A stretch of DNA of 64,000 bases from the NCBI GenBank assembly GCA_964016885.1, contig OZ024757.1, positions 8,494,001 through 8,558,000 on the forward strand, read 5' to 3'. Position numbers and translations under genes: made by a program. Below, one piece after another: positions 2,234 to 51,296 of this stretch. Positions within the stretch are counted from its first letter, which is position 1. Every line of letters begins with the position of its first letter. The stretch is from Eledone cirrhosa (lineage: Eukaryota). The notes beneath the pieces are model-generated. The model did not search any database and was not told where the DNA came from. It saw nothing but the letters and a program-made list of their open reading frames with translations.

Positions 2234-5200
2234 ATCATCATCATCATCATCTTCAGCATTATCATTTAACGTTCATTGTTATCACACCTGCATGGGTTAA
2301 ACAGGTTGTCACGTTATGAGACATGTCAGGTGTGGAGACCAGGTCTCATATGGATGTGTATTTTGGTTTGGTTTCTAAGGCTGGATGCCCTTCTTAACAC
2401 GAAACACGTTACAATGTGGACTGCACACTTTTGTATGACCACCTTACAGGATGAACTGGGTGTTTTTATTGTTGTAGCATCAACGAGGTGTGTGGGATAT
2501 TTAGCAGGTGAGGGTAGGGTCTTATGAATAGGGAGGGGTGTTGAGAAGATGGGTGAAGACTAGTGTGTTCTCTACATGTTTGTTTTATTTGAATTTCAGC
2601 ACATGGGAGGGGGGGGGGTCTTCTACATTACAGCATGACGCCAGAGGTCTCGATCCTGTGACATTTCCATTGAGAGGTTTAATTGGGCAAGGTGAACTTT
2701 TATTATTTCATCCCAAGCTTTCCTAGGTCTTCCCCTTTCATAGTTAACATCGACTTTGACAACCCTGTCCTTTTTATACAGCTGTCATATACATCACATG
2801 TCCAAACCACCACCATCTCCTCCCCTCTACACTGTATCTGACCTCTCTTATACCTAGTTTCTCTCTCAGTTTATTAATGCTTGTTGTTCATGCACACCAT
2901 TACACCTCTATCAGATCCTGTAAACTTCATTTCTTTCCAGTCTTTATAGGTCCTCTGAATATATTGCCCTGGTCTCACTTCAATGTAACATTGCTGTTTG
3001 TACACAGACTTCATACAATCTGCCTTTCGCTTTCAGGGGAAATCATTTTGTAGGCAGCAGTAGTAGTAGCCCCCTAAACTGCTTCCATCCCATTCTCACT
3101 CAGGCTACTGTACCTTCAGAACACCCACCTCCACTGTTAATTTGGTCATCTAGTTAACAGAAATTATGAACCGGTTTCTACAGAGCCTTCTGGACATTTA
3201 ACCCTTTAGCATTTAAACCAGCCACACCTAGCCAGAATACTCTCACATTTTTCTGTTCGAACCGACCATAACTGGCCACTCATACCGACATTAAGGTATT
3301 GTTCTCAATATAAATATCAAAATCTCATAGATTCGATATAAAGTGATATAATTATGTAAGATAAAGCCTTTACCACAAAAATACAATAGAATATATAGAG
3401 TAATGTAAATGCTGAAGGGTTAAAGTAGCTTATTTTTTTGTGAGCTGTTGCTACTTATTGCTCTTGTGCATCAAGCACATACACAACTTACATTCTTTTG
3501 CAAACCTCACTGAGATCCAATGTACATCTCTTGTTTATCCATAGTTTGGAATTTCTACCTACTCCTTTCATTTAGACTGAGCTAGGCCATTTCCTTGAGG
3601 GGATATACACCCTGTTTTCCTTTCTATTTTGCCAAGTTAACTTTAAGACATTTTCATTCTAGGCCATGCTTACAGGTTTGGAATTTCTCCTCTAATTTTA
3701 CCATAGATTAAGTGACATGGGTTCAATCATGTGCATAGAAGAGTTCCCATGGACAGCCAGTCTTAAACTCTTATATAATAGCCTGCAGGATGAAAATAAA
3801 CAGAAGAGGGTTAATAACAGAGCCCTGATAGACTTGCTCACTCAACTCCTCACTATAGCCATCATTACTTTTAACCTTACTGACTGCTCCTCCATACATG
3901 GCTTTTACTGCTCTCACAAGCCACTCATATATCCCTAGTTTTCTAAGTTACACACCAGATTATGGAACGGGGAAGTCTCACAAAAGCTCTCTCTGGGTCA
4001 ACAAATGCCAAGTAGAGGGGCTTATTTTAGCTAGGTACTGCTCTTGCAGTTGCCACACAAGGAAGAGGACATCAGTGGTACTTTGACCTGGCACAAATCC
4101 TTCATCTCATCTAGGTTAACTTGGTCCCTAATCAGCTGTGTTATAACTCTAACACCTTCATGAACTGGTCCATCTAATGTCTCTATAGTTTTCTAGCTCT
4201 AGTACATCTCCTTTGCCCTTGTAGCAGTTGATGATGATGATACTACACCATTTATTTGGTATGACACCATTGTGTATTACTTGCTTTACGATACCAGTGG
4301 TTAAGATGTGACCCACCATCCCAGATACTTTCAGTATCTCAGCAACTATCACCAATGGACAAGATACTTTCTCTGTCTTCATATCCTTAATTACCTTACT
4401 ACGCTACTGCTTACTTGTATGGCTGGACCCTCTGTTGGGCCCACTTTCTGTAGACTATCTCCCTCCCATGCATTCTCCTCATTCAGTAATCTTTCATAAA
4501 GGCATTTCCATGTTACAAAGGATGGCTGAAAAGTTTATGACTATCAATGATAGCATGATGCTAGAGCTGTGAAATCTTGCCTGCACTAATTTCAACTCTT
4601 CTTATTAACAACTGCATTGTTTCCCTCCAGGGACTATGTTGAAATATAAACCTCCTTTGGTCATTCCATGAGAGTATCTTGGTCTGCCTATGAACTTTTC
4701 AGCTGACCCTATTCAGTGTCAGTGAGGGCAACTGCCCCATTATCATCCTGGACACACTTTACCCCAACATCACAATTTTCCCTCACACACTGCCTCACAA
4801 TCCTGAACATCTCATGTATTTCATCCTCACATCATAAAACCAGCTGAAATTATATATTCTCTGCTTCCCTCCTTGCAAAGAATACTTCTTGCCTAGCTTC
4901 CTGGTAGTGTACCCTCCAGCTTCCCCCATTCTGCCATTATTCCATGCCTGTCTCTTGGCCTTAACTGTCTCATCTACCCTAGTGTTTCACCACCAAGATA
5001 CTCTCCTTCTCTCTGAAGCCCTGCTCCAGCCACAGATCTATTTTGATACCTTCAGCAAAGTTTCTTTCAGGAACTCCCACTGTTCCCCTATATTGTATGT
5101 TTCTATTTGTCCTTCCTTACTGTTGTAAAGATCAAACAAAATATCTCTAAATTTGGAAATGGCTGAGGGGTCCTTCAACTTCCATATCCCTCTCCTCCAG

Positions 5201-5390
5201 GTTGCCCTCAGTCTTCAAGTTAATCTAAGTCTATGAAATCACTAACTACTGGGTTATGTTGGGAGGTGCATTCTTCCCCAGGGGGTGGGGATTGTGTGTT
5301 TACAAATGTCACTATCTCATCTTCTGGTGAGGATAAAAATCTGACTGGCATGCTCACCTGATCAATAGGTGTTGAAGTGGTTGTCGGGTA
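2234..5390 (-). mobile_element. Old degenerate RTE-clade LINE
   Basis: (CAT)n tail at the left end. Broken minus-strand ORFs match the RTE ORF (IINCYKGKGDVLE, CPWELF). Many stops and frameshifts. Confidence 0.85.
3202..3419. mobile_element. piggyBac-type MITE nested in the RTE relic
   Basis: TTAA|CCCTTTAGCATTTA ... TAAATGCTGAAGGG|TTAA. A related copy lies at 55911-56119. Confidence 0.8.
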
Positions 5391-5424
5391 AACGTTAAGA
5401 CCCTCTGATATACATATATATATA

Positions 5425-5888
5425 CTAGCAGTGGTACCCGGCGTTGCACGGGATAACGTATTTTGGAACGCGGGCCACCATCTTCCACTTCAGCCGGTCG
5501 TCCTAAAGGGTTGGCTATTCAGTCTACTTGAGGCCATCTGGTGAGGGGGGTAAAGCTTTTAGTGTGCTACTACCCTCACGGTCAAATAGAAAGGGAGAGG
5601 AAGATAAGTCAGCGTTAATATCATGCTACACGAAAAAAGACAGAAAGAAAGGGGAAGAAAATGAAGAAGAAGAAAAGTCAGCGTTAATGTCGAGCTACAA
5701 GAAGAAAGGCAGAAAGAAAGAGGAAGAGAAGTCCGTACTAATGTCAAGCTAGTCAGGCGAGGAGTGGCGCGAAAAAATGTTATTCTAAAGGACCCGTATC
5801 TTAACAGAGGTAAATATAGTGGGGGTCTGCATATTACAATGTGTGAGCAGAAGATTGGAATGTTAAATTTGTGTTTAGATTTATAGGA
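5425..5888 (-). mobile_element. Non-autonomous Helitron
   Basis: The minus strand ends CCCGTGCAACGCCGGG (hairpin)-TACCACTG-CTAG|T. Candidate 5' end A|TCCTATAAATCT at 5888. Internal purine-rich ~50-70-bp repeats. Confidence 0.7.
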
Positions 5889-6197
5889 TGAAGTTACAAA
5901 AATTTAATATTTAATATTAACATTATAAACTTTAAGAAATTAGAAAATTGAAAATTAAACAGTTTAAAATTTGTGAGGTTTAAGTAAAGAAAGAGTCTTT
6001 TATGAAGAAACTTAAATTGTATTATAGAGTAAAGATTATGTCTTTGTTTAGCAGTCAAACAGCATGCGGCGACTTCAGGCTCCGTCGGCCCAACCTTACC
6101 CCGTGTCAGCCCTTCCGAGTGATATCGCCTAGCGAAAGATACGGAAATCAATTTTTCCAAGCACTCTAGGAAGGTATAACAGGCTTCAGGTGCGCCA

Positions 6198-6823
6198 AGA
6201 CAATAGGGTTTGCCAGTCTCTATTTAAGAATAAATCAAGAAAATAAATACAAACCGATTTGAACACATATATGTATATATCTGAGTTCGTTTTTCTTTTA
6301 TATTCAATTATAATATACGGCTCGGAAAAATCTCTTTCTTAGAGGTATTTTATTGTAAGAGACTATTTTGAGTTCCTAACTCAATATATACCTTTGATAT
6401 ATTCGGCTCCGTTAATTTGTTGAGCTATTTCAAATGTCGCATAAACCTGGCTGCTATTTTTAGTGGTGTAAGTTTGTTAGACACGCTAAGATACCATGTG
6501 CGTTGTTATATATAGCACACTATTCAGTTACTTAATATACTTAGAAGTGTCTAGGATACTAATTCATCACCCACTGATGAGCAAGAATTGGTATTTCTAT
6601 TCACAATTAATATTGCGAAACAGCACCAAGAGCTGTCTGGGTGATTGGTAGTTACCACAATTCCGGTTTGTATTTATTTTCTTGATTTATTCTTAAATTG
6701 AGACAGGCAAACCCTATTGTCTATAGTTAGTATTCTTTTCACCTTAGTGAATCTGGCCCCTTGCGATTTGAACACATATATGTATATATCTGTGTTCGGT
6801 TTTCTTTTATATTCTATTATAAT
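6198..6823 (+). mobile_element. Hammerhead-bearing Penelope-like pLTR or retrozyme-like unit
   Basis: ~60-bp direct repeat at 6255 and 6764 (period 509), a 59-bp inverted repeat at 6198-6256/6664-6722, an internal hammerhead, and an end in a CA/TA microsatellite. Confidence 0.7.
6566..6645 (+). ncRNA. Type I hammerhead ribozyme
   Basis: Stem I ATCACCCA/TGGGTGAT (8 bp), core CTGATGA, stem II GCAA...TTGC, GAAA, stem III ACAGC-accaaga-GCTGT. GUC cleavage triplet, cut after C6637. Confidence 0.9.
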
Positions 6824-6847
6824 TACACACACACACACACACACACG

Positions 6848-6885
<38 letters not shown>

Positions 6886-6886
<1 letters not shown>

Positions 6887-6994
6887 AAAAAGTATGATCC
6901 CGACGGCAGAGCTCAAGCCGTTTCGACGGCTACTTCGAGTCCAGAAATAGCCGTCGAAACGGCTTGAGCTCTGCCGTCGGGGTCATACTTTTTC
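6886..6994. repeat. Palindrome (~47-bp arms) containing the 3' half of a hammerhead ribozyme
   Basis: Arms at 6886-6932 and 6948-6994. The right arm reads GCCGTC-GAAAC-GGC-ttgagctct-GCC-GTC-GGGGTC. There is no CTGANGA half. Confidence 0.8.
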
Positions 6995-7739
6995 ATATTT
7001 CCCACTCTACTACTCTACGTATTGAGTACTCTGGTGCGTTATGGTCCACCTGGTTCCTTACCACACTTCCTTTGTTATATATATAATTAAATATATATAT
7101 ATATAGAGAGAGAGGGGGGGGCGAGAGAGAGAGAGATAGAGATAGAGAGAGAGAGAGAGAGAGAGAGTAGACAGACAATGACAAACAGACAGAATCAGTA
7201 TTTCATTTATGGACCTCAAAATATAGAAGCAGCTTCACCTCAGTGGGATTTTTACTCTGAGAGCTAGAGCAGACACTGAACATATATCCAGATGTGCACA
7301 CATCTATATAAGAACACATATATAAATATACACATATGTACACACATATACACATATTTATACACACCTAATTATACTCACATATAGATATACATATACA
7401 CAAATGAAGATACAATCATTTTTCGCATGTGGAGCGTACTTCATCTTTATACTGTATATGTGTGTGTGTATATATGTGTATATTTATCAGTGTATATGTG
7501 TATATTTATGATTGTATGTATGTACGTATTTGTATGAGTGGCCGTATGTATGTATGTCTAAGTTTGTGTCTACGTGCGCTTATATGTATGTGTATACGCA
7601 TGTATATGCGTATTTGTGTGTATATATATATATGGATATGTGTGTGTATGTGTATTTATATATATATATTTGACGTTATAGTCACTTATATATTATGGAA
7701 TACTGTTGGCTTCTTGCTACAATAATTTCTATACTTTTC

Positions 7740-7817
<78 letters not shown>

Positions 7818-8025
7818 ATGTAGTATAACAATAAAATGTTAAAGGTAATCCGATAAGAGTCTACGAAAACGTCTCATGGACAGTTTAAGCACACGGTAGT
7901 ATGGGACTCAACAAGATGTTTACTTTGGGGACAATTGTGCTTGTCTTCCTATGTAAATATATCTTGGAGTAATAACAAAGTTAAGAATAACATGGTTGAC
8001 AAAACAATCAAGGGTATTTAATTAT

Positions 8026-8130
8026 AGTCTTACAATTGTTTCCATGGTGGAATTGTCTATAAATTGCTAATACTGGAGAAGTATAAATCAACTTACAATA
8101 CATTTAAATCAAACCATTTCATCAGAAACT
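8026..8130 (-). ncRNA. Minimal (Penelope-type) hammerhead ribozyme, probably slightly degenerate
   Basis: Minus strand: AGTTT-CTGATGA-a-ATGGT...ACCAT-g-GAAAC-AATT-GTA-AGACT. Stem III is palindromic (CAATTG); the stem II closing pair is mismatched. Confidence 0.6.
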
Positions 8131-8171
8131 CTTAATAAATATAAAATATATGCGTAACGGTAAACTTAAAA

Positions 8172-9185
8172 GCACTACAACGGAATTGGCTGTCAGAAGT
8201 GAAAGTAGAAGAATGTGACGTCATTCGTCAACCTTCGTTTATTTCCGTATCACCACGAGTTTATTAATGTTTATTTACGTTAGCGTAGTAATCAATGAAA
8301 ATATATATATTTCGCTCTGTATATCAAATTAGACAACAAGTTAGCGTGATCGATTTGTTTTCAAATGAAAATATATATATATATTTCAAAAATATTTCAA
8401 TAGCATGGATACAGTAAAGTGAGTAGATTTGCAAACACATCGATTACGCTAACACCACCAATGCAGACTCTCACACAATCCCCACCACCGCCATGTGTAA
8501 ATAAATAAACTTTGAAATCACCACGTTCATGTAAAACTTGGTTTTTCACTTTGGGATAATACACGTATTTGCAAGTTGAAAAATATGAATTCTACATTAT
8601 ACCCCAGGGTGGATTTAATCATCGCCATATTTCCATCGCTACCCCTACTACAGCAGATACCATTAATTGGTTGAAAAACATGGACTTAATCCTGTATGTT
8701 ATTAAAAGGTTCCCGAGTAGTACAGTAAATTAAAGCCTTTACAAACGGAACTATGCAATGAAAGTATTTAATAAGTGTATCTCATCGTAAACGTATCTCT
8801 TAGAAATTCATAAATGGCTGTGTAAACCCTTACACTTTAAAACAAAATTACAAACCAATTATGTGGTCATTGAAGTTACTAGAAATAGCAGGCACATCTT
8901 ATACCCTCTGCCACATCCTGTGTTCCTGGCAGCTGAGTATCAACCATCCATAAAGAATCTTCAATGTCTGCCAGTATTACAGAACAAGCTTATCTTGTAG
9001 TTACCCGCGTTAATTTGTTTTTTGTTAAGAAAGTTTTCTAATTTTATAACTATGACTATGAAATAAAATGCGTGGAGATATGGAAACAAATCGATTACGC
9101 TCAACGTAAATAAACATAAATAAGTTGCAAATACGTGTATTATCCCAAAGTGAAAAACCAAGTTTTGCATCAACGTGGTGATGCA
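8172..9185. mobile_element. Second, inverted and rearranged copy of the 1105-2098 DNA transposon
   Basis: Same TIR start. 8481-9060 is the reverse complement of most of 1230-2020, with extra inverted segments and a truncated right TIR. Confidence 0.85.
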
Positions 9186-9254
9186 TCAACGCTGGAAGAT
9201 CCCACTCAGGATGAGAGAGCAGCCCGGGTGCCGGTAGCCGATGCCCTCGCTTCC

Positions 9255-9735
9255 TCTTTTATGGTGATTATTTCATATTAAGGTGGACGTTAATGTTTGT
9301 AAATAACATAAGGTGACTTATTTACCTTATAGTTGTTGTTTTATCACCTGTATTATTAAATATTGAAGTGGTTGTTCAACATTTTACAGGACAGGAAAAT
9401 ATTATTTTAATCAGAAATCAGTGAACATTTAGTTTTTACTAACTTTTCTTGACTTTATATTTGGTCTTGACAACTAAAGTACATATTATTTCCTTTTCCA
9501 CCACAACACAAACATTGTGAACTTTTCTATCTGAAGTGAAATATCTTGATTTATTACAACACCTACACACATATTTCTACACACACACACACAAATTTCT
9601 ATACACACACACATCTCTCTAACCCCCCCCCCCCATCTCTCACACTCTCTCTCTCTCTCTGATTGAATTATTCATATATATAATATACGCTCGAATTTTC
9701 TTCGTCAAAAATCAGTCTTATGTTGTCATATATTT
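9255..9735 (+). pseudogene. Zinc-finger gene relic: 5' non-coding exon (9390-9478) and intron start, coding exon deleted
   Basis: Nearly identical to ~16995-17310 and ~33265-33590. It then joins directly to sequence that follows the ZNF gene elsewhere (compare ~36240). Confidence 0.7.
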
Positions 9736-10527
9736 CCATTCATGGTTGATAAAAAACAATACCAGTCTACCACTGGGGTCTGTTCTTCCTCTCTATATTT
9801 CTATCTCACTTCCTCTCGCTCATTCTCTCTCCTTCTCTAGAAGAAATAAACTGTACAAACCTGTAGCGTGAAGGGCTCCACCAAGCTTCAAATGTCCACA
9901 GTGACATTCTTATGACTCCATCATTAAAAAACAAAACAAAAGAATTATGTGTTTATTTTGTAAACCTTAATTGGTTTATATCTGACAAAATATCCACATG
10001 TGTAAATAAAACCAATTCTATAACTTTAATATTTGTTGGATGGTACTTTCATGACAGTTGAAATTATGACTTTTTAAAAAAAAATAATTCACATTTGAAA
10101 ATACTTTACAACTTTCTTCTCTTTTTCTTCACCCATTTATTTCTGAGTGGGTTGTAGGGGGTAGAGTCCTCACACACCCCTTATCAGTCCAATGTTTGTA
10201 AAATGTCCTCTATACACTACACTCACACAACAACACATCACTCTGCACACACACACCACATCAAAACACCACAATATACACCCCATCCCACACAACAGAC
10301 ACACATCATACCACACCACACCACATCCAACACATACCACACCACAACACAACACATACAAACCAGGTAGTTATACCAACCCAGTATCTTGGTTTTAGTG
10401 ATATTTTTGTAATGAATCCCAACATCCCTGACCTTAGAGTGGACATTAAATGATGAGCTGTGACATCATTGGTGTCAACCTGTTTCAGCCATACCTTTGG
10501 ACAACAATGTATAGATATATAGAAATC

Positions 10528-10536
<9 letters not shown>

Positions 10537-10564
<28 letters not shown>

Positions 10565-11988
10565 AATTATTGTGTACAGTGCTCAGGTGCACTACAACTC
10601 GTCAAAGGTATATGTATAGTACATAGAAAAATAAACAAATGTCAGGGAAATGAATAGTGTATGAGTCATGATATACAAGTGTCTATGTGTATGGAGGGGG
10701 AACATTAGGTGTAGTGTTGGTGAATCTCGGGAAGCATGGAGGCCTTAAAGGATGCAGTGTCTTGACAGCTAACAACTGATGGAGGTTTTAAAGGATGCAG
10801 TGTCTCAACAGCTAACAACCGATGCAGGTAGTTTGTTCCATGGAGGTTTTAAAGGATGCAGTGTCTCGACAGCTAACAACCGATGCAGGTAGTTTGTTCC
10901 ATGGAGGTTTTAAAGGATGCAGTGTCTCGACAGCTAACAACCGATGCAGGTAGTTTGTTCCATGGAGGTTTTAAAGGATGCAGTGTCTCGACAGCTAACA
11001 ACTGATGCAGGTAGTTTGTTCCATGCTTCAACAACTCTGAGCGTGAAAAAATGTTTCCGAAAGTCATGGGAACTGTGCTGTTTTCTGACTTTGTGGGCAT
11101 GTCCATGTGTGTTAGACACATGGAAATCAAAAAGGTGCTCAGGGTTGTTGTTGGCAAGATGGTTAACAATTTTGTGGGTGTTTACCAAGTCAGTTGCCAG
11201 GCGTCGGAGCTTCAATGAATCCATGCCCAGGGAAGCAAGGCGTTCAGAGTATGGTAGATGCCTGATGGAGGGTATTCACTTGGTTGCACGTCTCTTAACA
11301 GTTTCCAGGCGGTCAATGTTCTGAGCAAGATAGGGGTTTCAGATTGGTGATGCAAATTCTAAGTGTGGCCACACCATAGCCATGTACAGCCTTAAATAGA
11401 TAGCTGGAGAGTGGCTGACAAAGGTCTTGCTGAGTGATGCTAAGACACCCTCGGCCCTCTTGACAATTTAAGAGATGTGCTTCGTCCAACGCAAATCGCT
11501 GCTGACCGTAATGCCCAGGTCACGTTCACAAGAAGACTTCTTGATATTAGTGCTGTGGAGGGAGTATGTGGACGCTGGGTTTTTAATCCCAAAATGCAGC
11601 TAGCTTGAGTTGCCAGTCTGTGATCCATTGCTGCATTGTGTCCAGGTTAGACTGCAAGCAAGATCTATAGTGTTCAGGATCTGTCCTTTTTATCTCAAGG
11701 TACAGCTTGATGTCATCTGTGTACTTTAGTACTGTGGCATTCTTTAAGTTGGCATCTGTGTCATTAATATATGCCACAAACAAAAGGGGGCCAGAACAGA
11801 TCCCTGTGGTACACCAGATGACATCTCATATGGTGAGAAATGCTGTCCCAGAACCGTGACTACCTCTCTTCGACTGAGAATGAAGGACTTCAACCAGTTA
11901 AAAACATCATCCTTCACACCCATTGCAGAGAGTTTTGCCGTAAGTATTTTGAGTGGCACAGAATTGAAAGCTTTCGCAAAGTCAAGGT
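10537..11988 (-). mobile_element. 5'-truncated CR1/L2-group LINE (same family as 40715-45170)
   Basis: GVPQGSVL, YINDT, KYTDD and FFTLRVVEAWNKLP motifs; (TAA)n tail at the left end. Confidence 0.9.
10736..11024. repeat. 61-bp tandem repeat amplified from the CR1 ORF2 C-terminus (~4.5 copies)
   Basis: Unit catggaggttttaaaggatgcagtgtctcgacagctaacaaccgatgcaggtagtttgttc. It is single-copy in the 40.9 kb element. Confidence 0.9.
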
Positions 11989-11998
11989 ATATATATAT

Positions 11999-14889
11999 AT
12001 GTGTGTGTTCAAGAGACGAGGTGCAGGGGTGGGTCTGCTAGATTCATTGTGGGTAAAAAAAGATGCTATGAACTTTTCTGGATGGGAAATGACAATGGGC
12101 TGGGTGGAGTAGGAATTATGTTAGCAGAGAAATGGGTAGATAAGATAATTGCCATAAATAGAGTGAACAACAGAATAATTAGAATAAGACTAATTTTAAA
12201 TATAACAACTATGACTATAATATCCACTTATGCACCCCAATCTGGCCTACTTGATGTTATAAAAGACAGGTTCTATGATTTGCTAATGCTCACTTCCTCC
12301 CAAATAACAGACAGTGACTGCATAATTATTGCTGGTGACCTAAATGGTCACATTGGACAACATAGTGATGGCTATGATGGAATCCATGGAGGCTATGGGT
12401 TTGGTACTAGAAATGAAGAAGGCTTCAGGATCCTGGAATTTTGTGACGCTAATAACCTAACTATCTGTAACACAAACTTCGAAAAAAACGAGACAATCAC
12501 TTCATCACCTATAGATCAGGGGACCACGCCAGCCAGATATACGATATCCTTACTAGAAGACATTTCAGAGTGTTTGTTGTAAACACTAAATCCCTCCTCT
12601 GTGAAGAATTCACCTCCCAACATAGCCTAGTAGTTAGTGACCTCACAGTCAGGACTAGATGTACTCGACGACAGAGGAGGACTACCTTGAGGAGAAGATG
12701 GAAGTTGAAGGACCTCACAGCCAGTGACAAATTTAAAAGCATATTAGTTAATACTTTTGACAGTAAAGAGGTGCAATTAGAGACATACAATATAGAGGAA
12801 CAGTGGCAATTATTGAAAGTTAACCTGCTGAAGGCGACAGATGAAATCTGTTGCTGGAGCTGACCTATAGGCAGGAGGAGAGTAACTTGGAGGCGGAGGA
12901 GACAATCAGGCTTGGAAAGTATTGTGGGATGGGGAAAGTAGAGAACACTATTAGGTGGCCAGGAGACAATTGTACTTTGCAAGAAGGGAAGCAGAGAATA
13001 GAAAGTTCAAGCATGTTCTACAGCGTGAGGTGTTCAGGATCGCAAAACAAAGTGTCAAGGAAAACCGTGATATTGTCAGGGAGAAGTGTGTCCGTAACGA
13101 TGATGGTGTACTTGTCCTCACTGATACTGATAAGAAGGTAGCTTCGAAGTGTCACTGCGAGAGACCACTAAGTAAGGTGAATAAATGGGAAAAAGATAGT
13201 CTTCCCCAAATCGATCCAATAGAGGGACCAGCGGTGCAAGTTAATGGTAGTATAGTAAGTAAGGCAATCAAAGATATGAAGACGGGCAAGGCAGCTGGGC
13301 CTTTGGAGATAGTTGTTGAGATGTTGAAAGCATCTGGAATGGTGGAACATACTATGGACATCCAGATAGTAAACCAAGTAATACAGAATGGGGTCATACC
13401 AGATGACTGGCATAGCAGCATCATCGTTAACTGCTACAAGGGTAAAGGAGATACGCTAGATAGGGGAAACTATAGAGGCATTAAGGTAGTTGACCAGGTC
13501 ATGAAGGTCACAGAAAGAGTTATAGCACAACTAATCAGAGACCAACTTGATCTAGATGAAATGCAGTTTGGGTTCATGCCATGTAAAAGTACCACAGATG
13601 CTATTTTCATTGTACGACAACTACAGGAGAAGTAGCTAGCTAAAAGTAAACCCCTTATACTCAGCTTTTGTTGACTTGGAGAAAGCATTTGACAGAGTCC
13701 CCCACTCCATTATTTGGTGGGCCCTTAGAAATGTAGGAGTAGATGAATGGCTTGTGAGAGATATACAAGCCATGTATAAAGAAACAGTCAGTAAGGTTAG
13801 AATTAACAATGAATATAGTGAAGAATTTAGTGCAAAAGTAGGTGTTCAGCAAGGCCCCATCCTTAGATTCCTCCTGTTTATTATTGCCCTTCAGTCTATA
13901 ACAGAGGGGTTTAAGACCAGCTGCCCATGGGAACTTCTATATGCAGATGATCTAACTCTCCTAGCCTAATCTATGGCTGAACTAGAGAAGAAATTCCAAA
14001 AATGGAGGTATGGCCTTGAATCAAAAGGCCTTAAAGTTAACTTGTCTAAGACTAAAGGTTTAGTATGTAGAAAAGAAAATAGGGCACTGATGCCATGCTC
14101 AGTGTGTAGGAAAGGAGTAGGTAGAAATTCCATTCTATGTCCCAAATGCAGACTATGGGTACATAAAAGATGTAGTGAGATCACAGGTAAGCTATCTAAG
14201 AATGTAGATTTTATATGTGGCCGATGCTCATGTGAAATAAGAAGCATGAACGGCAAAACATAAAGGAACTAAGTGAGAATTAGGAATAAGAGGGATCAGA
14301 TTCTGTTTACTTGAGAGAAGATTATGTTGGTATGGTCCTGTGATGCACATGAACGATGACAGCTTTATAAAAAAGTGCAGGGTGATCAAAATTGATGGAA
14401 GTTACGGAGTAGGTAGACCCAGAAAAACCTGGGACAACATAAAATCCAACCTTGCACACTTACACCTCTCTTAGACAATGTCACTGGAACGAGATCTATG
14501 GCACCACACAGTAACAGAGAAGAACTGCCATCCCTATGTGCAAAGGTAACCTACAGTCAGTAGGACCCTCCTAACCAAATATACACCCCAACCCACAACC
14601 CCTACTCCATCTTCCCACCATCACTACCCTGTCTCTGTAAAGTTATGTTGGTGCCACAACATCCAGTCCAAACTAAAGAGGTAGTGTAGGTGTCATCACG
14701 CAAAGACTCCCAGTCCATACTGGAAATGTGGTTGGTGTTAGGAAGGGCATCCAGCTGTAGAAAACCTGCCAGATACAGTCCTATACGAGCGAGACACGGT
14801 CACCCAATCAATCTTGCCTCAAGTGGGACAATTCCCGTCTAACCCATGCTAGCGTGGAAGATAGACATTAAATGATAATGATGATGATG
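11999..14889 (+). mobile_element. Degenerate RTE LINE (APE + RT + PHD), duplication copy 1
   Basis: ORF pieces QETR, GDLNGHIG, NYRGIK, QFGFMP and LLYADD; (TGA)n tail; multiple frameshifts. Confidence 0.93.
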
Positions 14890-15667
14890 ATATATAGTGT
14901 ATATAATAGTTGTAATGTCACTGGTGCTGATCTATATCAGCCTTTCCCTTGGACAACATGACATATAGTCTATATATATTGGACAATATTATATATGGTG
15001 TATATGTGGTGTATATAGTAGTTGTGACAATATTCTATATACATATGTACACACACACTGACAAACATGTATATACATATAGAAGGGTCGGATGAGAAGT
15101 TCATAGACTGACCAAGTTACTCTCATGGAATGAGACAATGTATACACAAATATATACTATATATATGTATACAAACACATATATATTGTATAGTGAAGTC
15201 ATACATCATATGGTAATATCATGTTTTCAATTGTCAGTTAGGGAGGTACATTGTGTCCTTAAGCAAGACACATCATTCCACATGTCTCTAATCTCCACAG
15301 CTGAAAAAGACAAGTATCAGCTTTAGTTGGAGGTTTAGCATGGGTTGTATCATTCTCTGCCTCCAACATTTTCCCTGCAGCCACAAACCCAGGCTTTACT
15401 ACCTGCAATAGAGAGAAGAGGGAGATAGTTAAATACTGGGGCCTGACAAACCACTTCCTCTCTGTCCCCACACTGCTGATTTTCTCCTCAAAATTAGAAA
15501 GACAGCAGCCCCCTTGGGGAAGTAGTCCCATGAGGTGGGGTGGATGTTGTAGTGGGTGACTCTGGCTATTCTCTGTGGTAACACCTTTGCAATTTTGTCT
15601 GTAGGGTGGGGCTGAATCACAGCTCAGACTGAAATATAAAGTCTGTCCCTCTCCCGTTAATTTCGTT

Positions 15668-15855
15668 GGATTGGCAGTGTTGGTAGAGCGTCGGGCGCCA
15701 AGCTTTGTAGCATAGAGTTACCTCCCTCTATGATCTGAGTTCAAATCCCGCCGAGGTTAACTTTGCCTTTCATCCTTACGAGGTCGATAAAATAAAGTAC
15801 CAGTAATACACTGGAATAATTGCTGGCCTTGTGCCAAAAGTAGAAACAATTATTT
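15668..15855 (+). mobile_element. tRNA-derived SINE (MetaSINE-like central domain)
   Basis: A-box-like TGGCAGTGTTGG, B-box GAGTTCAAATCC, then GCCTTTCATCCTTACGAGGTCGATAAAATAAAGTACCAG. Many copies in the window. Confidence 0.8.
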
Positions 15856-16430
15856 TCGTTGTTTGATTCGTTTTTTTTTTTTTTTCCATTACGTAAATCT
15901 TTTATTAACTTTAATAATGTGTTTTGGTTTAATATGAACAGTTATATAAAATTAATAACGTTATTTATTCAAATCTGAATAAAGTACTAGCATATCTATT
16001 GAACGTATGAATCTAAACTATAATAAAAGAAGGAGCGCGGGACTGCGTACAGTTTCTAATTGTTTATCCCATTAATAAAATAAGTTAGATTACTTTGAAT
16101 AAATAATGAATGAATATTACATAATTTATCTACTAAATTTCGGGGCTGTTGATTAAATATATTTTGTTTGTTTAAAAATTCACTTCTTTAAAATTTCTGA
16201 AATGCCAACACTTCCGGTTTGCCATCACTTCAATAAACTATTAATTTTCTGTCACTAATTTTCTCCTAATGCAGTTTATATATAATATCGTCTTTTTTAA
16301 TGTATCATGGATTACGTTACTGATTACATAAGACAGTGTAACACAGTCTTCGTTCAATTTCTGTGTATTATATATTTGTTTCTACTTTAGGCACAAGGCC
16401 AGCAAATACTCAGTTCATTACTGGTACTTT

Positions 16431-16625
16431 AAGGCGGTGGATTGGCAGTATTGGTAGAGGATCGGACGCCATGCTTTGACGCATAGAGTTACGGCCCTTG
16501 TCATTCTGAGTTCAAATCCCGCCGAGGTTAACTTTGCCTTTCATCCTTACGGGGTCGATAAAATAAAGTACCAGTAATACACTGGCAAAGTTACTGGCCT
16601 TGTGCCTAACGTTGAAACAATTATA
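16431..16625 (+). mobile_element. tRNA-derived SINE, same family
   Basis: Same A/B boxes and central domain, preceded by an inverted piece of its own tail (16380-16430). Confidence 0.8.
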
Positions 16626-16864
16626 TATTGTAAATTACGATTTTATTTGATGTATCATATCTACATGTATATATATATACTTGCGTATAATATCAATATA
16701 CACACTACACATGCTAGCTGAAAACCACCCGAAGGTAGCATGTGTAGTGTGTATATTGATATTACACGCAGGTATATATATACATGTATCATATATACCT
16801 GCGTATAATATCAATATACACACTACACACGCTACCTTCGGGTGGTTTTCTGCTAGTTCATATA

Positions 16865-17785: not shown

Positions 17786-18484
<699 letters not shown>

Positions 18485-19962: not shown

Positions 19963-20488
19963 TCCACACATATATATGTATACATATTATTTCATCATCA
20001 TCATCATCATCATCATCAGGTTTAGCGTCCGTGTTCCACGCTTGCATGGGTTTGGACGGGGGTTTTCCCACTTGAGGCAAGAGTGGTTGTCTTGCTCGCA
20101 TAGGACTGTCTGGCGGGTTTTCTACAGTTGGATTCCCTTCCTAACACCAACCACATTTACAGTGTGGGGCTGGGAGGTTTTAACCGTGTTGCCTACACGG
20201 CCACATTACAGCGTGGACTGTCTGGCGGGTTTTCTACAGCTGGATGCCCTTCCTAACACCAACCACATTTACAGTGTGGGGCTGGGAGGTTTTTACCGTG
20301 TTTCCTACACGGCCACATTTACAGCGTGGACTGTGTGTTTTTTGTCGTGACACCTACACGATCTCATTTGTTTCGGCCTGGATGTTGTGGGCCCAACATA
20401 ACTTTACATTGAAAGGGGCGGTGTGGGTGGGGTGGAGGTGTGTTTTGATAGAGATGCCTACTGACTGTAGTAGGTTTTTACTTTGTAT

Positions 20489-22624
20489 TTAGGTAAGGCG
20501 GGTCTTCTCTATTACTGAGTACCGCCAAAGGTCTCGGTCCAGTGACATTGTCTTGGAGAGGTGTAAGTGTGTGAGGTCGTAATTTATCAGCTCGTCCCAT
20601 GTTTTTCTGGGTCTGCCTACTCCGTGGCTACCGTCTATCTTTATTGCCCTGCACTTTGTTATACAGCTGTCGTCTTTCATGCGCATCACGTGACCGTACC
20701 AACGTAGCCTTCTCTCGAGTAAACAACATCTGATCCCTCTTATTTCTAATTTTTTCCTTAGTTCATTTATGCTTTGCCGTTCACGTATATTACTATTGCA
20801 CATCCAGCGGAGCATGCAAGCTTCGTTCCTCTCTAGTCTGCGTATATCCTCTGCACACAATGCCCAGGTCTCACTGCCATGCAGCATTGCTGTTCGTATG
20901 CAGGCATCGTATAACCTGCCTTTCATTTTTAGGGAGAACCCTCTAGCGGCTAATAGTGGTATAAGCTCTCTGAACTTTTTCCATCCAGTTCTGACTCTAG
21001 CTACTGTACTTTCAGAGCACCCTCCCCCACTGCTGATTTTGTCACCCAGATAACGGAAGCTGTCCACTATTTCTATAGAACCCTCTGCGCAGTTGAAGGA
21101 GCTAGTATTTTGTGGGCACTTGCTGCTACTTATTGCACCAGAGCACCGGCCACATGTAAAATCTATGTTCTTAGTTAGCTTACCTGTGATCCCACTACAT
21201 CTTTTATGCACCCATACTTTGCATTTGGGACATAAAATGGAGTTTCTACCTACGCCTTTCCTACACACTGAGCATGGCCATTTCCCAGATGGGACCGCCG
21301 CCTTATTTTCTTTCCTACAAACTAGAACTTTAGTCTTAGCCAGGTTAATTTTAAGGCCTTTTGATTCTAGGCCGTGCTTCCATGTTTGGAATTTCTTCTC
21401 TAGTTCGGTTATTGATTCAGCTATGAGCGTTAGATCATCTGCGTATAGGAGTTCCCATGGGCAGCCGGTCTTGAACTCCTCTGTTATAGCCTGAAGGGCA
21501 ATAATAAATAGTAGGGGGCTAAGAACAGAGCCCTGATGGACACCAACTTTTACGCTAAACTCTTCACTATATTCGTTGTTAATTCTAACCTTACTGATTG
21601 TTTCTTTATACATGGCTTGTATAGCTCTCACAAGCCATTTGTCAACACCTAGTTTTCTAAGAGACCACCAGATAATGGAACGGGGGACTCTGTCGAAGGC
21701 TTTCTCCAAGTCGACAAAAGCTAAGTATAGGGGTTTACTTTTAGCTAGGTACTTCTCCTGTAGTTGTCGTACAATGAAAAGAGCGTCTGTGGTACTTTTG
21801 CCTGACACAAACCCAAACTGCATTTCATCTAGATCAATTCTCTCTCTGATTAGCTGCGCTATTACTTTTTCCGTGACCTTCATGACCTGGTTGATTAATT
21901 TAATGCTTCTATAGTTACTCCTATCTAGGGCATCTCCTTTTCCCTTATAGCAGTTAACGATGATGCTGCTACGCCATTCCTTCGGAACAACCCCATTCTG
22001 TACGACTTGGTTAACTATCCGGGTGACCGTGGTGTGTCCCACCGAACCAGATGCCTTCAGCATCTCAGCAACTATTTCCGAAGGCCCAGCCGCCTTACCC
22101 GTCTTCATATCTTTGATTGCCTTACTTATTATACTACCTTCAACTAACACTGCTGGTCCCTCTATTGGATCGATCTGGGGGAGACTGTCTTTCTCCCATT
22201 TGTTCTCCTCATTTAGAAGCTTTTCGTAGTGACACTTCCAAGCTACCTTCTTATCAGCGTCGGTGATGGCAAGTACGCCATCATCGTTAAGTACACACTT
22301 CTCCCCGACAATATCACGGTTTTCCTTGACACATTGCCTGGCAATCCTGAACACCTCACGTTTTTGGTCCTCACGTTGTAGAACATGCTTGAACTTTCTT
22401 TCCTCTGCTTCCCTTCTTGTGAAGTACACTTGTCTCCTAGCTTCCCTCCTGGCCACTTGATAGTCTTCTCTACTTCCCCCATCCCGCCATACTTTCCAAG
22501 CCTGCTTTTTGGCCTTAATTGACTCCTCCACCTTACTGTTCCACCACCATGTTACTCTCCTCCTACCTACAGGCCTGCTCCAGCCACAGACTTCGTCAGC
22601 AGGTTTGCTCTCAGGAATTCCCAC
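20489..22624 (-). CDS. RTE reverse transcriptase portion with embedded PHD finger (downstream of the frameshift)
   Basis: NYRSIKL, QFGF, FVDLEKAFD, GVHQGSVLSP, LLYADD and FRYLG; C4HC3 motif at 21143-21274. Confidence 0.9.
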   Translation of the reverse strand: MGIPESKPADEVCGWSRPVGRRRVTWWWNSKVEESIKAKKQAWKVWRDGGSREDYQVARREARRQVYFTRREAEERKFKHVLQREDQKREVFRIARQCVKENRDIVGEKCVLNDDGVLAITDADKKVAWKCHYEKLLNEENKWEKDSLPQIDPIEGPAVLVEGSIISKAIKDMKTGKAAGPSEIVAEMLKASGSVGHTTVTRIVNQVVQNGVVPKEWRSSIIVNCYKGKGDALDRSNYRSIKLINQVMKVTEKVIAQLIRERIDLDEMQFGFVSGKSTTDALFIVRQLQEKYLAKSKPLYLAFVDLEKAFDRVPRSIIWWSLRKLGVDKWLVRAIQAMYKETISKVRINNEYSEEFSVKVGVHQGSVLSPLLFIIALQAITEEFKTGCPWELLYADDLTLIAESITELEKKFQTWKHGLESKGLKINLAKTKVLVCRKENKAAVPSGKWPCSVCRKGVGRNSILCPKCKVWVHKRCSGITGKLTKNIDFTCGRCSGAISSSKCPQNTSSFNCAEGSIEIVDSFRYLGDKISSGGGCSESTVARVRTGWKKFRELIPLLAARGFSLKMKGRLYDACIRTAMLHGSETWALCAEDIRRLERNEACMLRWMCNSNIRERQSINELRKKLEIRGIRCCLLERRLRWYGHVMRMKDDSCITKCRAIKIDGSHGVGRPRKTWDELINYDLTHLHLSKTMSLDRDLWRYSVIEKTRLT

Positions 22625-23499
22625 TGTTCCTCTATATTATACGACTCTAATTGCTCTTCCTTACTGTCGAAAGCGTCAAGTAATATGCTTTGGAATTTAT
22701 TTCTGGCTATGGGGTCCTTTAGCTTCCATATTTTTCTCCTGAGGATAGTCCTCTTCCGCTGTCTAGTACGTCTCGTCCTGACTATGAGGTCGCTAATTAT
22801 CAGTCTATGTTGGGAGGTGAATTCTTCATGGGGGTGGGATTTAGTGTTAACAACAGACACTCTGTCACGTCTTCTGGTAAGGATATAATCTACCTGGCTT
22901 GTGTGTTCCCCCGATCTATAGGTGATCAAGTGATTGTCTCGTTTTTTGAAGTTAGTGTTACAGATAGTTAAGTTATTTGCGTCGCAGAATTCCAGGATTC
23001 TGGAGCCTTCCTCATTTCTAGTACCGAACCCATAGCCTCCATGGATTCCGTCATAGCCGTCACAATGTTGTCCAACGTGACCATTTAGGTCGCCTGCAAT
23101 AACTATATAGTCACTGTCGGTTATTTGGGAGGTAGCGAGCATCAGTGTCTCGTAGAATCTGTCTTTTATAGCGCCGGGCAGTCCGGATTGGGGTGCGTAC
23201 GCAGATATTACTGTCACCGTAGTTTTATTGAGGACAAGTCTTATTTTAATTATTCTGTCGTTCACTCTATTTACGTCTATTATCTTATCTGCCCACTTTT
23301 CTGCTACCATGATTCCTACCCCACCCAACCCATTGTCATTTCCCACCCAGAAAAGCTTATAGCATCGTTCTTTACCCACGATGAATCTAGCCGACCCTCC
23401 CCTCCACCTGGTCTCTTGAATACAACAAACATCGACCTCCTTACGTTCAAGCATTTCTACAACCTCGTTAGAGCGACCCTTTAAGGTGCCTACATTCAT
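22567..23499 (-). CDS. RTE apurinic-like endonuclease (APE) portion
   Basis: NVGTL, IQETRW, SAYAPQ, GDLNGHVG, VDYIL and SQHRL motifs. Confidence 0.9.
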   Translation of the reverse strand: MNVGTLKGRSNEVVEMLERKEVDVCCIQETRWRGGSARFIVGKERCYKLFWVGNDNGLGGVGIMVAEKWADKIIDVNRVNDRIIKIRLVLNKTTVTVISAYAPQSGLPGAIKDRFYETLMLATSQITDSDYIVIAGDLNGHVGQHCDGYDGIHGGYGFGTRNEEGSRILEFCDANNLTICNTNFKKRDNHLITYRSGEHTSQVDYILTRRRDRVSVVNTKSHPHEEFTSQHRLIISDLIVRTRRTRQRKRTILRRKIWKLKDPIARNKFQSILLDAFDSKEEQLESYNIEEQWEFLRANLLTKSVAGAGL

Positions 23500-27420: not shown

Positions 27421-28139
27421 TCTCATTCTCTAGAAGAAATCAACTGTTCAAACCTGGTGAGTGAAGGGCTCCACCAAGCTTCAAATGTCCACAGTGACAC
27501 CCCTATGACTACATCATTAAAAAAAAAAAGATTTATGTGTTTATTTTGTAAACCTTAACTGGTTTATATCTGACAAAATATCCACATTTATGTGTAAATA
27601 AAAACAATTCTATAACTTTAATATTTGTTGATGGTACTTTCATGGCAGTTCAAATTATGACTTTTGAAAAAAATAATTCACATTTGAAAATACTTTACAA
27701 CTTTCTTCTCTTTTTCTTCACCCATTTATTCCTGAGAGGGTTGTAGGGGTAGAGTCCTCACAACCCTTCTAGGTCCTATGTTTGTAAAATTTCCTCTATA
27801 CACTACACTCACACAACAACACATCACTCTGCACACACACCACACAACAGACACACATCATGCCAGTCCAACACACCACATCCAACACATACCATACCAC
27901 AACACACCACAACATACCACACCACATACAAACCAGGTAGCTATACCAACTCAGTTTCTTGGTTTTAGTAATTTTTTGTAACAAATCTCAACATCCCAGA
28001 TCTTAGCAACTGGAGTGGAACTCATCAGATTGGACATTAAATGATGAGCTGTGACATCATTGGTGCCAACCTGTTTCAGCCATTCCTTTGAACAACAATG
28101 TATAGATATATAGAAATCATATATATATATGTGTGTGTA

Positions 28140-31100
28140 TTCTATAGACTCGGTGCAGGGGTGGGTCTGCTAGATTCATTGTGGGTAAAAAAAGATGCTA
28201 TAAACCTCTCTGGGTGGGAAATGACAAAGGGCTGGGTGGAGTAGGAATTATGTTAGCAGAGAAATGGGTAGATAAGGTAATTGCTGTAAATAGAGTTAAC
28301 GACAGAATAATTAAAATAAGACTAATTCTAAATATAACAACTGTGACAATAATATCCACTTATGCACCCAAATCTGGTCTACCTGACGTAATAAAAGACA
28401 GGTTCTATGATTTGCTAATGTTCACTTCCTCCCAAATAAACCTCAGTGACTACATAATTATTGCTGGTGACCTAAATGGTCACATAGGACAACATAGTGA
28501 TAGCTATGATGGAATCCATGGAGGCTATGGGTTTGGTACTAGAAATGAGGAAGGCTTCAGGATCCTGGAATTTTGTGATGCTAATAACCTAACTATCTGT
28601 AACACAAACTTCAAAAAATGAGACAATCACTTCATCACCTGTAGATCAGGGGAACACGCCAGCCAGATATACGATATCCTTACTAGAAGACATGACAGAG
28701 TGTCTGTTGTAAACACTAAGTCCCTCCTCTGTGAAGAATTCACCTCACAACATAGCTTAGTAGTTAGTGACCTCACAGTCAGGACTAGACGTACTCGACA
28801 ACAGAGGAGGACTACCTTGAGGAGAAGATGGAAGTTGAAGGACCTCACAGCCAGTAACAAATTTAAAAGCATATTAGTTCATGCTTTTGACAGTAAAGAG
28901 GTGCAATTAGAGACATACAATATAGAGGAACAGTGGGTATTCTTGAAAGTTAACCTACTGAAGGCGACAGATGAAATCTGTTGCTGGAGCAGACCTATAG
29001 GCAGGAGGAGAGTAACTTGGAGGTGGAGGAGACAATCAGGCTCGGAAAGTATTGTGGGATGGGGAAAGTAGAGAACACTATTAGGTGGCCAGGAGACAAT
29101 TGTACTTTGCAAGAAGGGAAGCAGAGAATAGAAAGTTGAAGCATGTTCTACAACGTGAGGTGTTCAGCATCGCAAAACAAAGTGTCAAGGAAAACCGTGA
29201 TATTGTCAGGGAGAAGTGTGTCTGTAATGATGATGGTGTACTTGCCCTCCCTGATACTGATAAGAAGGTAACTTGGAAGTGTCACTACGAGAGACTACTA
29301 AGTGAGGAGAATAAATTGGTAAAAGATAGTCTGGCCCAAATCGATCCAATAGAGGGACCAGCGGTGCAATTTAATGGTAGTATAGTAAGTAAGACAATCA
29401 AAGATATGAAGACGGGTAAGGCAGCTGGGCCTTTGGAGATAGTTGTTGAGATGTTGAAAGCATCTGGAAAGGTGGGACATACTATGGACACCCAGATAGT
29501 AAACCAAGTAATACAGAATGGGGTCATACCAGATGACTGGCATAGAAGTATCATCGTTAACTGCTACAAGGGTAAAGGAGATGCCCTAGATAATGGAAAC
29601 TATAGAGGCATTAAGGTAGTTGACCAGGTCATGAAGGTCACAGAAAAAGTTATAGCACAGCTAATCAGAGACCAAATTGATCTAGATGAAATGCAGTTTG
29701 GGTTCGTGCCAGGTAAATGTACCACAGATGCTTTTTTTCCTTGTACAGCAACTATAGGAGAAGTAGCAAGCTAAAAGTAAACCCCTTATACTTAGCTTTT
29801 GTTGACTTGTAGAAAGCCTTTGACAGTCACACCCGCTCCATTATCTGGTGGGCCCTTAGAAATGTAGGAGTAGATGAATGGCTTGTGAGAGCTCTACAAG
29901 CCATGTATAAAGAAACAGTCAGCAAGGTTAGAATTAACAATGAATATAGTGAAGAATTTAGTGTAAAAGTAGGTGTTCAGCAAGGCCCCATCCTTAGATT
30001 CCTCCTGTTTATTATTGCCCTTCAGGCTATAATAGAGGGCTTTAAGATCAGCTTCCCATGGGAACTTTTATATGCAGATGCTCTAACTCTCCTAGCCGAA
30101 TCTATGGCTGAACTACAGAAGAAATTCTAGAAATGGAGGCATGGCCTTGAATCAAAAGGCCTTAAAGTTAACTTGTCTAAGACTAAAGGTCTAGTATGTA
30201 GAAAAGAAAATAGGGCACTGGTGCTATGCTCAGTGTGTAGGAAAGGAGTAGGTAGAAATTCCATTCTATGTCCCAAATGCAAATTATGGATACATAAAAG
30301 ATGTAGTGAGATCACAGGTAAGCTATCTAAGAATGTAGATTTTATATGTGGCCGATGCTCAGGTGAAATAAGCAGCAAGTACCCACAGGATACTAGCACC
30401 TTCTACTGCCCAGATGGTTCTATAGAAATAGTGGACACTTTCCGTTGCCTGGGTGACAAAATCAGCAGTGGGGGAGGGTGCTCTGAAAGTGTAGTAGCCA
30501 GAGTTAGAACGGGATGGAAAAAGCTCAGAGAGCTAATACCGCTGCTAGACACAAAAAGTTTCTCTAAAAATGAAAGGCAGATTGTATGATGCGTGCATAC
30601 GAACAGCAATGTTACATGGCAGTGAGACATGGGCATTGTGTGCAGAGGACCTGCGCAGATTGGAAAGGAACAAAGCATGCATGCTCTGTTGGACGTGTAA
30701 TGGTAATATACAGGAATGGCAAAACATAAACAAACTAAGTGAGAATTAGGGATAAGAGGGATCAGATACTGTTTACTTGAGAGAAGATTACGTTGGTATG
30801 GTCATGTGATGCGCATGAAAGATGACATCTATATAAAAAAGTGCAGGGTGATCAAAATTGATGGAAGTACTGGAGACATAAAATCCAACCTTGCACACTT
30901 ACACCTCTCTTAGACAATGTCACTGGATCGAGATCTATGGTGCCACACAGTAACAGAGAAGACCTGCCTTCCCTATGTGCAAAGTTAACCTACAGTCAGT
31001 AGACCCCTCCTAACAAAATATACACCCAACCCACACACCCTACTGCATGCTCCCACTCCCACCAACACCACCCTGTCTCTGTAAAGTTATGTTGGTACCA

Positions 31101-31333
31101 CAACATCCAGTCCAAACTAAAGAGGTTGTGTAGGTGTCATCACGAAAAGACTCCCAGTCCACGCTGGAAATGTGATTGGTGTTAGGAAGGGCATCCAGCC
31201 TTAGAAAACCTGCCATATACAGTCCTATACGAGCGAGACACGATCACCCGATCAATCTTGCCTCAAGTGGGAAAATTCCCATCTAACCCATGCTAGCGTG
31301 GAAGATAGACGTTAAATGATAATGATGATGATG
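28140..31333 (+). mobile_element. Degenerate RTE LINE, duplication copy 2
   Basis: Shares lesions with 11999-14889 (e.g. the same deletion after VTWRWR), so it inserted before the duplication. Confidence 0.93.
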
Positions 31334-51295: not shown

Positions 51296-51296
51296 T

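Follow-up and report, generated by a model that had tools for sequence, protein, structure and literature searches.

A decayed, ORF-less hammerhead repeat with a 509-nt unit, probably copied from a linear tandem transcript and likely mobilised by a Penelope-like retrotransposon

The insertion treated here, which takes up 6198-6823 of the window (the whole stretch of DNA analysed, 64 kb), is an old, decayed copy of a high-copy, ORF-less repeat likely mobilised in trans by a Penelope-like retrotransposon (PLE), and the template for its 509-nt non-autonomous unit was probably a linear tandem transcript that had been cut in part. The family to which it belongs is multi-copy, has no ORF, runs in the order A-B-C-A (A, 6255-6402; B, 6403-6637; C, 6638-6763; then A again), has its main 3' end in (TA)n and contains joints with a switch of strand at other loci as well. 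The locus, ~1.3 units long and carrying one ribozyme, is best called a monomeric offspring of the PLE-mobilised, non-LTR kind of retrozyme (Table 1).

Table 1. Features of the insertion and of the sequence next to it, in window positions.
Feature	Position	Strand	Remark
Separate multi-copy repeat outside the element	5425..6197	-	interrupted by the insertion at 6197/6198
Inverted copy of 6664-6722	6198..6256	-	57/59 identity; 5' part of the insertion
Segment A, 3' end of the incomplete unit lying upstream	6255..6402	+	depth peak 6364-6397, drop after it
Left copy of the 60-bp repeat	6255-6314	+	start of segment A
Segment B, non-coding spacer before the ribozyme	6403..6565	+	under-represented in the family
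Type I hammerhead ribozyme motif	6566..6645	+	descriptor scan with chance control
Segment C, predicted cut to unit end	6638..6763	+	depth step at a bin boundary
Right copy of the 60-bp repeat, where segment A begins anew	6764..6823	+	57/60 identity
(AC)n then (AT)n microsatellite, likely insertion target	6824..6884	.	family ends in (TA)n

Comparison of the window with itself (blastn) recovered both repeats that a preliminary description of this DNA had noticed around the ribozyme, namely the direct repeat of about 60 bp starting at 6255 and 6764 (spacing 509, E 2e-21) and the 59-bp inverted copy of an internal stretch (E 1e-22), and its remark that the unit ends in a CA/TA microsatellite also agrees with what is read there, (AC)n followed by (AT)17.5. 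A second copy of the 509-nt unit was not found by blastn in the 64-kb window. The unit (GC 0.33) holds no credible ORF, as had been stated, with stops throughout its six-frame translation and with the Pfam cut-off reached by 0 of the 58 frames scanned (68 frames of at least 50 aa overlap 2500-11000, 10 of which, rich in simple repeats, were left out), a scan that is insensitive to decayed ORFs and missed the RT-like remnants at 3540-5385 too. Five sub-cut-off Pfam matches among those flank frames were rejected. An ORF with a telomerase-like RT and a GIY-YIG endonuclease was present neither in the unit nor in the scanned flank frames and, judged by this ORF of the EN+ PLEs, the locus is no autonomous PLE.

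The 60-bp repeat is an arbitrary overlap and no defined terminal repeat, because other copies of the family run through both of its ends; of the terminally redundant ~509-bp unit that had been proposed, the 509-nt spacing stands and the terminal repeat does not. Its reading as a target-site duplication was rejected as well, the repeat being internal family sequence that lies inside the inverted piece, and around the element there was no sign of a target-site duplication of at least 3 bp. The redundancy is also larger than the 60 nt that had been assumed: in cyclic order 6255 equals 6764, which places the inverted piece (6664-6722) directly upstream of the sense start, and because of this position the overlap amounts to 160 nt (the equivalent of 6664-6823, made up of 60 nt direct, 59 nt inverted and 41 nt lost) and the template to at least 669 nt, its 5'-most copied base lying 26 nt after the upstream cut site. 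Across the junction the sequence runs antisense from 6722 to 6664, loses 41 nt (6723-6763) and goes on in sense from the 6764-equivalent, the letters CG (6255-6256) being shared. The twin-priming model, which comes from LINE-1, gives just such a succession of an antisense piece, a small deletion, a short microhomology and then the sense part, and the 5' inversion was likely made in this way. The duplicated parts differ at 5 of 119 positions; among these differences are variants frequent in other copies (6705) as well as rare ones (6284), a mixture that favours neither one circle nor two different tandem units. The right 60-bp copy stops at a TA-rich stretch 88 nt before the family's main 3' end (6402).

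To the left, the preliminary description had let the element extend into different sequence at 5889-6197, and this part had to be given up: 6488 RAD reads (run X6, see below), possibly from few loci, align up to 6197 and continue into other sequence, which is why the element is taken to start at 6198, and further groups of RAD reads do the same at 6194 and 6195. The repeat on the left shows depth in all bins of 5820-6193, and its continuation was met nowhere else in the 64-kb window (0 matches at up to 3 mismatches). The reading of 5889-6197 as the 5' UTR of the element, behind a pLTR end at 6722, was rejected because contigs cross 6722/6723 (6596-6735, 6666-6821, 6679-6823) and the left repeat continues separately. 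At 5425-5450 this repeat has a GC hairpin followed by a CTAG end motif, which we take to be a Helitron-like 3' end, and we infer that 5425-5820 and 5820-6197 are one element, within which a 69-bp tandem duplication lies at 5596-5727.

Scanning the 64-kb window on both strands with a type I descriptor gave one hammerhead, its core at 6574. Stem I is formed by 6566-6573/6638-6645 (8 bp), followed by the CUGAUGA box (6574-6580), stem II (6581-6584/6613-6616, 4 bp) with a 28-nt inner hairpin loop, GAAA (6617-6620) and stem III (6621-6624/6632-6635, 4 bp), so that the conserved core (CUGANGA, GAAA, UH) and the three stems, stem I being the open one, are all present, and the cut is predicted to fall after C6637 (6637/6638). 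The hammerhead with a cut at this place, as proposed in the preliminary description, is thus upheld as a complete type I motif at the level of sequence: 150 order-3 Markov copies of the window, scanned on both strands, gave 8 matches at the loosest setting and 0 with stems of 8-4-4. Rfam returned no match at its gathering threshold and no hammerhead family among its 19 weak matches, a miss for which the 28-nt hairpin inside loop II is the likely cause. The constrained fold of the region has -24.6 kcal/mol vs -27.6 for the free one, and the active fold makes up ~0.3% of an ensemble predicted with tertiary contacts left out, from which it follows that this copy (6566-6645) may cut poorly. A long-range helix between 6553-6564 and 6725-6736 (predicted pair probabilities 0.5-0.96) would close the ribozyme domain; its 3' strand falls in the 41 nt missing from the upstream overlap. 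There is also a ribozyme subfamily (7 X1 contigs with loose ends before 6633) that has a longer stem III loop and an A replacing G12 (6617), likely a CpG decay that would inactivate cleavage.

The family was surveyed by aligning 5820-6830 of the window at 80% likeness or more to four public sequence runs, X1 and X2 (contigs of one sample), X5 (contigs of a second organism) and X6 (raw RAD reads), which gave 4127, 4239 and 14 aligned contigs and 11708 aligned raw reads, respectively, with most of the family contigs 90-99% alike. Five public runs were listed as containing all or part of this DNA, none of them registered as RNA. Depth was present in 30 of 30 bins of this stretch for X1, X2 and X6 (13 of 30 for X5), and therefore both the unit and the sequence to its left are repeats. 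Between the single-copy and the multi-copy unit that the preliminary description had weighed, the contig counts speak for a high-copy family, and within the 64-kb window there is only the one copy. What is said below of individual places, joints, ends and pieces draws on the best-ranked entries, namely 40 substitution places (of 191), 15 joints (of 37), 24 loose ends (of 841) and 24 pieces (of 8496). Among those listed, other copies continue past the end of our copy at 6823 into 6315 onward, as seen from the joints 6823->6348, 6791->6298, 6796->6346, 6804->6313 and 6808->6303 and from an X5 loose end behind 6823 that reads as 6315 onward; others pass from 6738 into 6256. Listed pieces cover 6377-6545, 6394-6549, 6309-6490, 6517-6673, 6521-6691, 6526-6720, 6596-6735 and 6666-6821, one X5 contig is contiguous over 6299-6430, and the joins 6763/6255, 6823/6315 and 6402/6403 are crossed unbroken in other copies. 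Taken together, the spanning joints and the pieces mean that every join of the cycle A, B, C, A exists elsewhere, with 6517-6549 bridged only by overlaps of ~29 nt. The longest listed piece has 175 aligned bases, and neither a two-ribozyme tandem nor a complete second unit is among them. Contigs running on with 20 or more unlike letters make up 1% (X1) and 0% (X2). Ten of the 15 listed joints of other copies (37 in total, joint orientation not being given) switch strand, and in 7 of these 10 a break falls within 6399-6627, on the upstream side of the cut, from which it follows that templates reading across the ribozyme were not rare.

The ends of the copies and the profile of depth along the unit are what points to linear templates. 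Depth peaks at 6364-6397 and drops 6.5 fold (X1) and 6.3 fold (X2) in the next bin, the loose ends of 30 and 32 contigs of these runs show (TA)n behind 6402, and the X5 ends at 6390 and 6812 run into TA/CA repeats. All four end points (6812, 6823, 6390 and 6402, the exact 3' ends being uncertain insofar as the aligner tends to run through TA-rich letters) are preceded by TA-rich letters, which suggests that synthesis was primed through a few base pairs with a (TA)n target. At the other end, depth in bin 6636-6669 exceeds that in bin 6602-6635 by 7.1 and 7.5 fold (X1, X2), and the single-position depth of X1 rises from 6.2-11.7 thousand at 6440, 6478, 6530, 6596, 6599 and 6607 to 56-63 thousand at 6662, 6664, 6748 and 6757, so that the predicted cut 6637/6638 falls in the 55-nt interval holding the step. 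Over longer distances C+A is ~5-fold deeper than B (X1 medians 70,770 vs 13,253, with a low of 2.1 thousand at 6505), contig depth here being summed word depth and no copy number. Indels at 6624 and 6630 (local depth 2.3-3.4 thousand) and the variant stem III loop (loose ends 6630, 6633) depress the depth just before the step, and a stall of the reverse transcriptase at the ribozyme fold would look identical to a cut. The raw reads of X6 show a step of only 1.4 fold near the cut, and this restriction-based library is unable to test the step because its molecules are bounded by GCATGC and AATT sites. The simplest reading of the profile is that most family copies are a 274-nt form that reaches from the cut site to 6402, and linear templates that have preferred ends account better for the unevenness of depth than free permutation does.

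The course of events that we consider probable would begin with a source locus holding two ribozymes that is transcribed through, after which the RNA would be cut at one hammerhead, most templates then having ~274 nt (6638-6763 plus 6255-6402) and giving short copies that leave the ribozyme core behind. A minority of templates, with the upstream hammerhead cut and the next one left uncut, would have been the source of the present locus, which calls for at least 669 nt. A Penelope-like RT/GIY-YIG protein would act on them in trans by target-primed reverse transcription, with internal initiation at TA-rich sites, and in our case a second priming at the 6722-equivalent would have copied 59 nt oppositely, with the loss of 41 nt and the joining of the two cDNAs through CG. 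By itself the copy at this locus cannot yield a unit-length RNA whose ends suit circularisation, because it has only one ribozyme and misses 88 nt of the usual 3' end. Against this account it must be said that the autonomous partner was neither found nor linked in the 64-kb window and the metagenome contigs, that the two-ribozyme source locus is absent among the listed pieces (of 175 aligned bases at the longest), and, as far as a canonical PLE is concerned, that the inverted piece is internal and no 5'-truncated copy runs to the element end. The metagenome contigs gave no match to the element with two patterns; 4 loci of viral contigs with a 19-base match, lacking further similarity and a ribozyme, were set aside as chance. 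One could go further and read the copy-depth profile as a record of hammerhead cutting in vivo that sets the 5' end of the retrotransposed RNA, the family being in essence a SINE-like 274-nt element that leaves its ribozyme behind and is spawned by rare longer-than-unit sources, themselves derived from uncut or re-ligated (circular) 509-nt RNA, a thought that we put forward tentatively and would sooner doubt than accept.

Was the template, then, a circle? According to this alternative, a tandem RNA would be cut at two hammerheads, the 509-nt monomer ligated, and the Penelope RT would have travelled ~1.3 times round it, and we hold this to be unlikely even though every join of the 509-nt cycle is present in other copies and the locus cannot be explained without a template of 669 nt or more reaching across an intact ribozyme. 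Circles are made by the retrozymes of mussel, coral and axolotl (PMC7229834), and a model of this sort has been proposed for PLEs (PMC4209133). A linear tandem transcript, however, accounts for the same joins, and one and a third units could arise on either kind of template; partial tandems are formed by Naiads, which lack canonical hammerheads (PMC8557442), and a depth step near the cut is unexpected if the RT crosses a ligated join. A linear cut RNA would leave a 5'-most copied base such as is found here, 26 nt past the cut site, and the locus has one ribozyme, with no tandem among the listed pieces. When folded as a circle the unit attains a z of -2.9 (0 of 60 shuffles as stable), but 2 of 16 control stretches of the window reach z -2.3 and -2.7 and the fold score is not diagnostic. 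The preliminary description had thought of reverse transcription slightly more than once round a ~509-nt circle; the longer-than-unit template in this proposal holds good, and the short redundancy that was to point to a circle does not.

Quite improbable, too, is the possibility that the locus is plain pLTR debris of an autonomous Penelope/Neptune element, with C+A as the pLTR, most copies as autonomous insertions truncated at the 5' side and the 509-nt unit as a minor internal-deletion subfamily that does not propagate itself. The ~5-fold greater depth of C+A over B in X1 would be explained by it, and PLE hammerheads are mostly single motifs of truncated elements (PMC4209133); X1 record 6 (313 nt) aligns only over 6563-6722 and has 148 further letters that could be flank or ORF-side 3' UTR, loose ends are known from the best 24 of 841, and the Pfam scan is insensitive to decayed ORFs, as the remnants it missed at 3540-5385 illustrate. 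These points are countered by other copies (15-21 differences each) that together cover 6377-6549 and 6517-6720 free of foreign inserts, overlapping by ~29 nt, by the second organism (X5), which is contiguous over 6299-6430, by the near absence of contigs that continue into unlike sequence, and by the full 4-bp stem III as against the minimal motifs that PMC4209133 gives as typical of metazoan autonomous PLEs. A local accident, that is, repeats made by DNA repair or an assembly error around a chance hammerhead motif, is highly improbable and largely refuted by the family contigs of the public runs: it could appeal to the missing Rfam hammerhead match, to an active fold that is a minor predicted state and to the circumstance that no listed contig (best 24 of 8496 pieces) spans the whole stretch, but 0 of 150 simulated windows yield an 8-4-4 motif, thousands of related contigs exist, with similar strand-switch joints elsewhere, and 5 differences in 119 positions between the repeat copies are unlike an assembly duplication.

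How the locus relates to the systems already described depends on which of its traits are compared. Like the metazoan non-LTR retrozymes, which are known in the mollusc Mytilus at 350-390 bp, it is a high-copy, non-coding unit low in GC (33%) that carries a single type I hammerhead, occurs as scattered monomers and has PLEs as its proposed helper. In coral, mussel and axolotl, circular RNAs arise from tandem non-LTR retrozymes whose units measure 170-400 nt, with PLEs as a candidate helper (PMC7229834), and our 509-bp unit lies above that range; it does fall inside the 51-972 bp given for animal retrozymes in a bioRxiv preprint (10.64898/2026.07.22.740005) in which these are argued to be non-autonomous PLE derivatives of pLTR origin, many of them monomers. 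In the available text of the same preprint molluscs are absent from the sampling, an 'active' retrozyme is one with two ribozymes, and of nine predicted Xenopus retrozymes one cleaved in vitro and eight did not. Unlike such active metazoan retrozymes, the locus, at 1.3 units, has one ribozyme and is no two-ribozyme tandem, and most of the family's depth lies in a 274-nt part lacking the ribozyme core. The retrozyme label chosen earlier is hence fair for a non-coding hammerhead unit and fails at the locus where two ribozymes are demanded, and the opposition once drawn between a retrozyme and a Penelope pLTR lapses, the two now being argued to be one thing (10.64898/2026.07.22.740005).

The Penelope-like partial tandem with an inverted 5' segment, in turn, was borne out, and the (TA)n ends may be added to it. 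PLE insertions are described as partial tandems truncated at the 5' side, frequently accompanied by an adjoining inverted copy, with an optional tail of 30-40 bp and a bias for microsatellites/(TA)n, and the role of hammerheads in PLEs is stated to be unclear (PMC8557442); inverted pLTRs, joins with microhomology, palindromes at inverted junctions and mobilisation in trans through pLTR sequences alone are also on record (PMC3846280). With the EN+ PLEs (Penelope/Poseidon, Neptune) the locus shares the partial tandem, the inverted 5' piece with microhomology, a hammerhead in the repeat, variable 3' ends, a (TA)n target and the lack of a clear target-site duplication; it differs from them in having no RT/GIY-YIG ORF, in an inverted piece that is internal and stands in twin-priming order (the inverted copy of PLEs runs to the 3' end) and in its full stem III vs their minimal form. 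The PLE hammerheads, found in pLTRs, are mostly minimal and single, and the circle model is offered for them as tentative (PMC4209133). In an anole PLE, internal initiation of the RT leads to variable 3' ends and explains the tail, and, within the available part of that report, no RNA reads begin or end at the cut site and cleavage is dispensable in vitro (PMC11167929); unlike there, where the initiation site is not homologous to the target, our ends lie at TA-rich stretches. The resemblance to the twin-priming inversions of LINE-1 (antisense piece, small deletion, short microhomology, sense part) stops at the poly(A) tail and the target-site duplication, both absent here, and at the enzyme family, which is another one.

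Taken by itself the locus is unremarkable, a dead copy of a transposon whose kind is known from mussel, coral, amphibians and fish, and what is of use is the signal at the level of the family, a step in depth where the ribozyme is predicted to cut. A pile-up of copies at the cut site in a high-copy family would make the role of PLE hammerheads testable by a genome-wide map of ends, and copies longer than the unit would separate linear-tandem from circular templates; were the cut in vivo indeed to set the 5' end, this would be direct genomic evidence for a ribozyme role of the Penelope type. No cephalopod hammerhead retrozyme was found among the titles and abstract openings listed for the open-licence literature, and if the above holds and the host is an octopus, the family would be the first cephalopod retrozyme family described. 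The 509-nt family may be undescribed and would then be an expected extension, and published supplementary family lists may include it. A cephalopod host is plausible but was not confirmed by protein searches with a zinc-finger ORF of the window, whose best hits were generic zinc-finger arrays of at most 60% identity, with one Argonauta protein at 40%. For an octopus host it would also be relevant that 336 recently active Penelope-like insertions are reported in Octopus vulgaris, in a study whose main text does not contain the word ribozyme (PMC13282606).

Beside the ribozyme element, at 6882-7085 (plus strand, end approximate), there is a 55-bp hairpin (z -21) that forms the 3' half of another type I hammerhead, unrelated to the first, with a long stem II, GAAA at 6956, a 4-bp stem III, UC and a predicted cut after 6978. 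In the place of its CUGANGA box stands the downstream part in inverted copy, as though the cDNA had folded back on stem II and primed itself, and the half motif is unique in the window at that stringency (both palindrome strands; no chance control). Standing between TA-rich runs, 6882-7085 is likely a second family of the Penelope type in the same target.

Elsewhere in the window, several copies of one LINE lie at 11988-16715 / 28120-33102, 20215-23432, 37178-39600 and 3540-5385, the endonuclease and RT motifs in its ORFs at 11968-13969 being presumably those of an RTE-like element, and two of the copies sit inside a segmental duplication of ~6 kb with 92-94% identity. Minisatellites of 27, 49, 61 and 61 bp and a 459-bp duplication (98%) occupy 49180-51298, 52825-53166, 55196-55809, 10779-11025 and 53708-54610, and the descriptor scan gave no type I hammerhead in them. 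Arrays of C2H2 zinc fingers with an 84-bp period are found at 17875-18444, 34159-34972, 58154-59647 and 61070-61306; that at 58154-59647 is an open frame of 497 aa, and the others look decayed.
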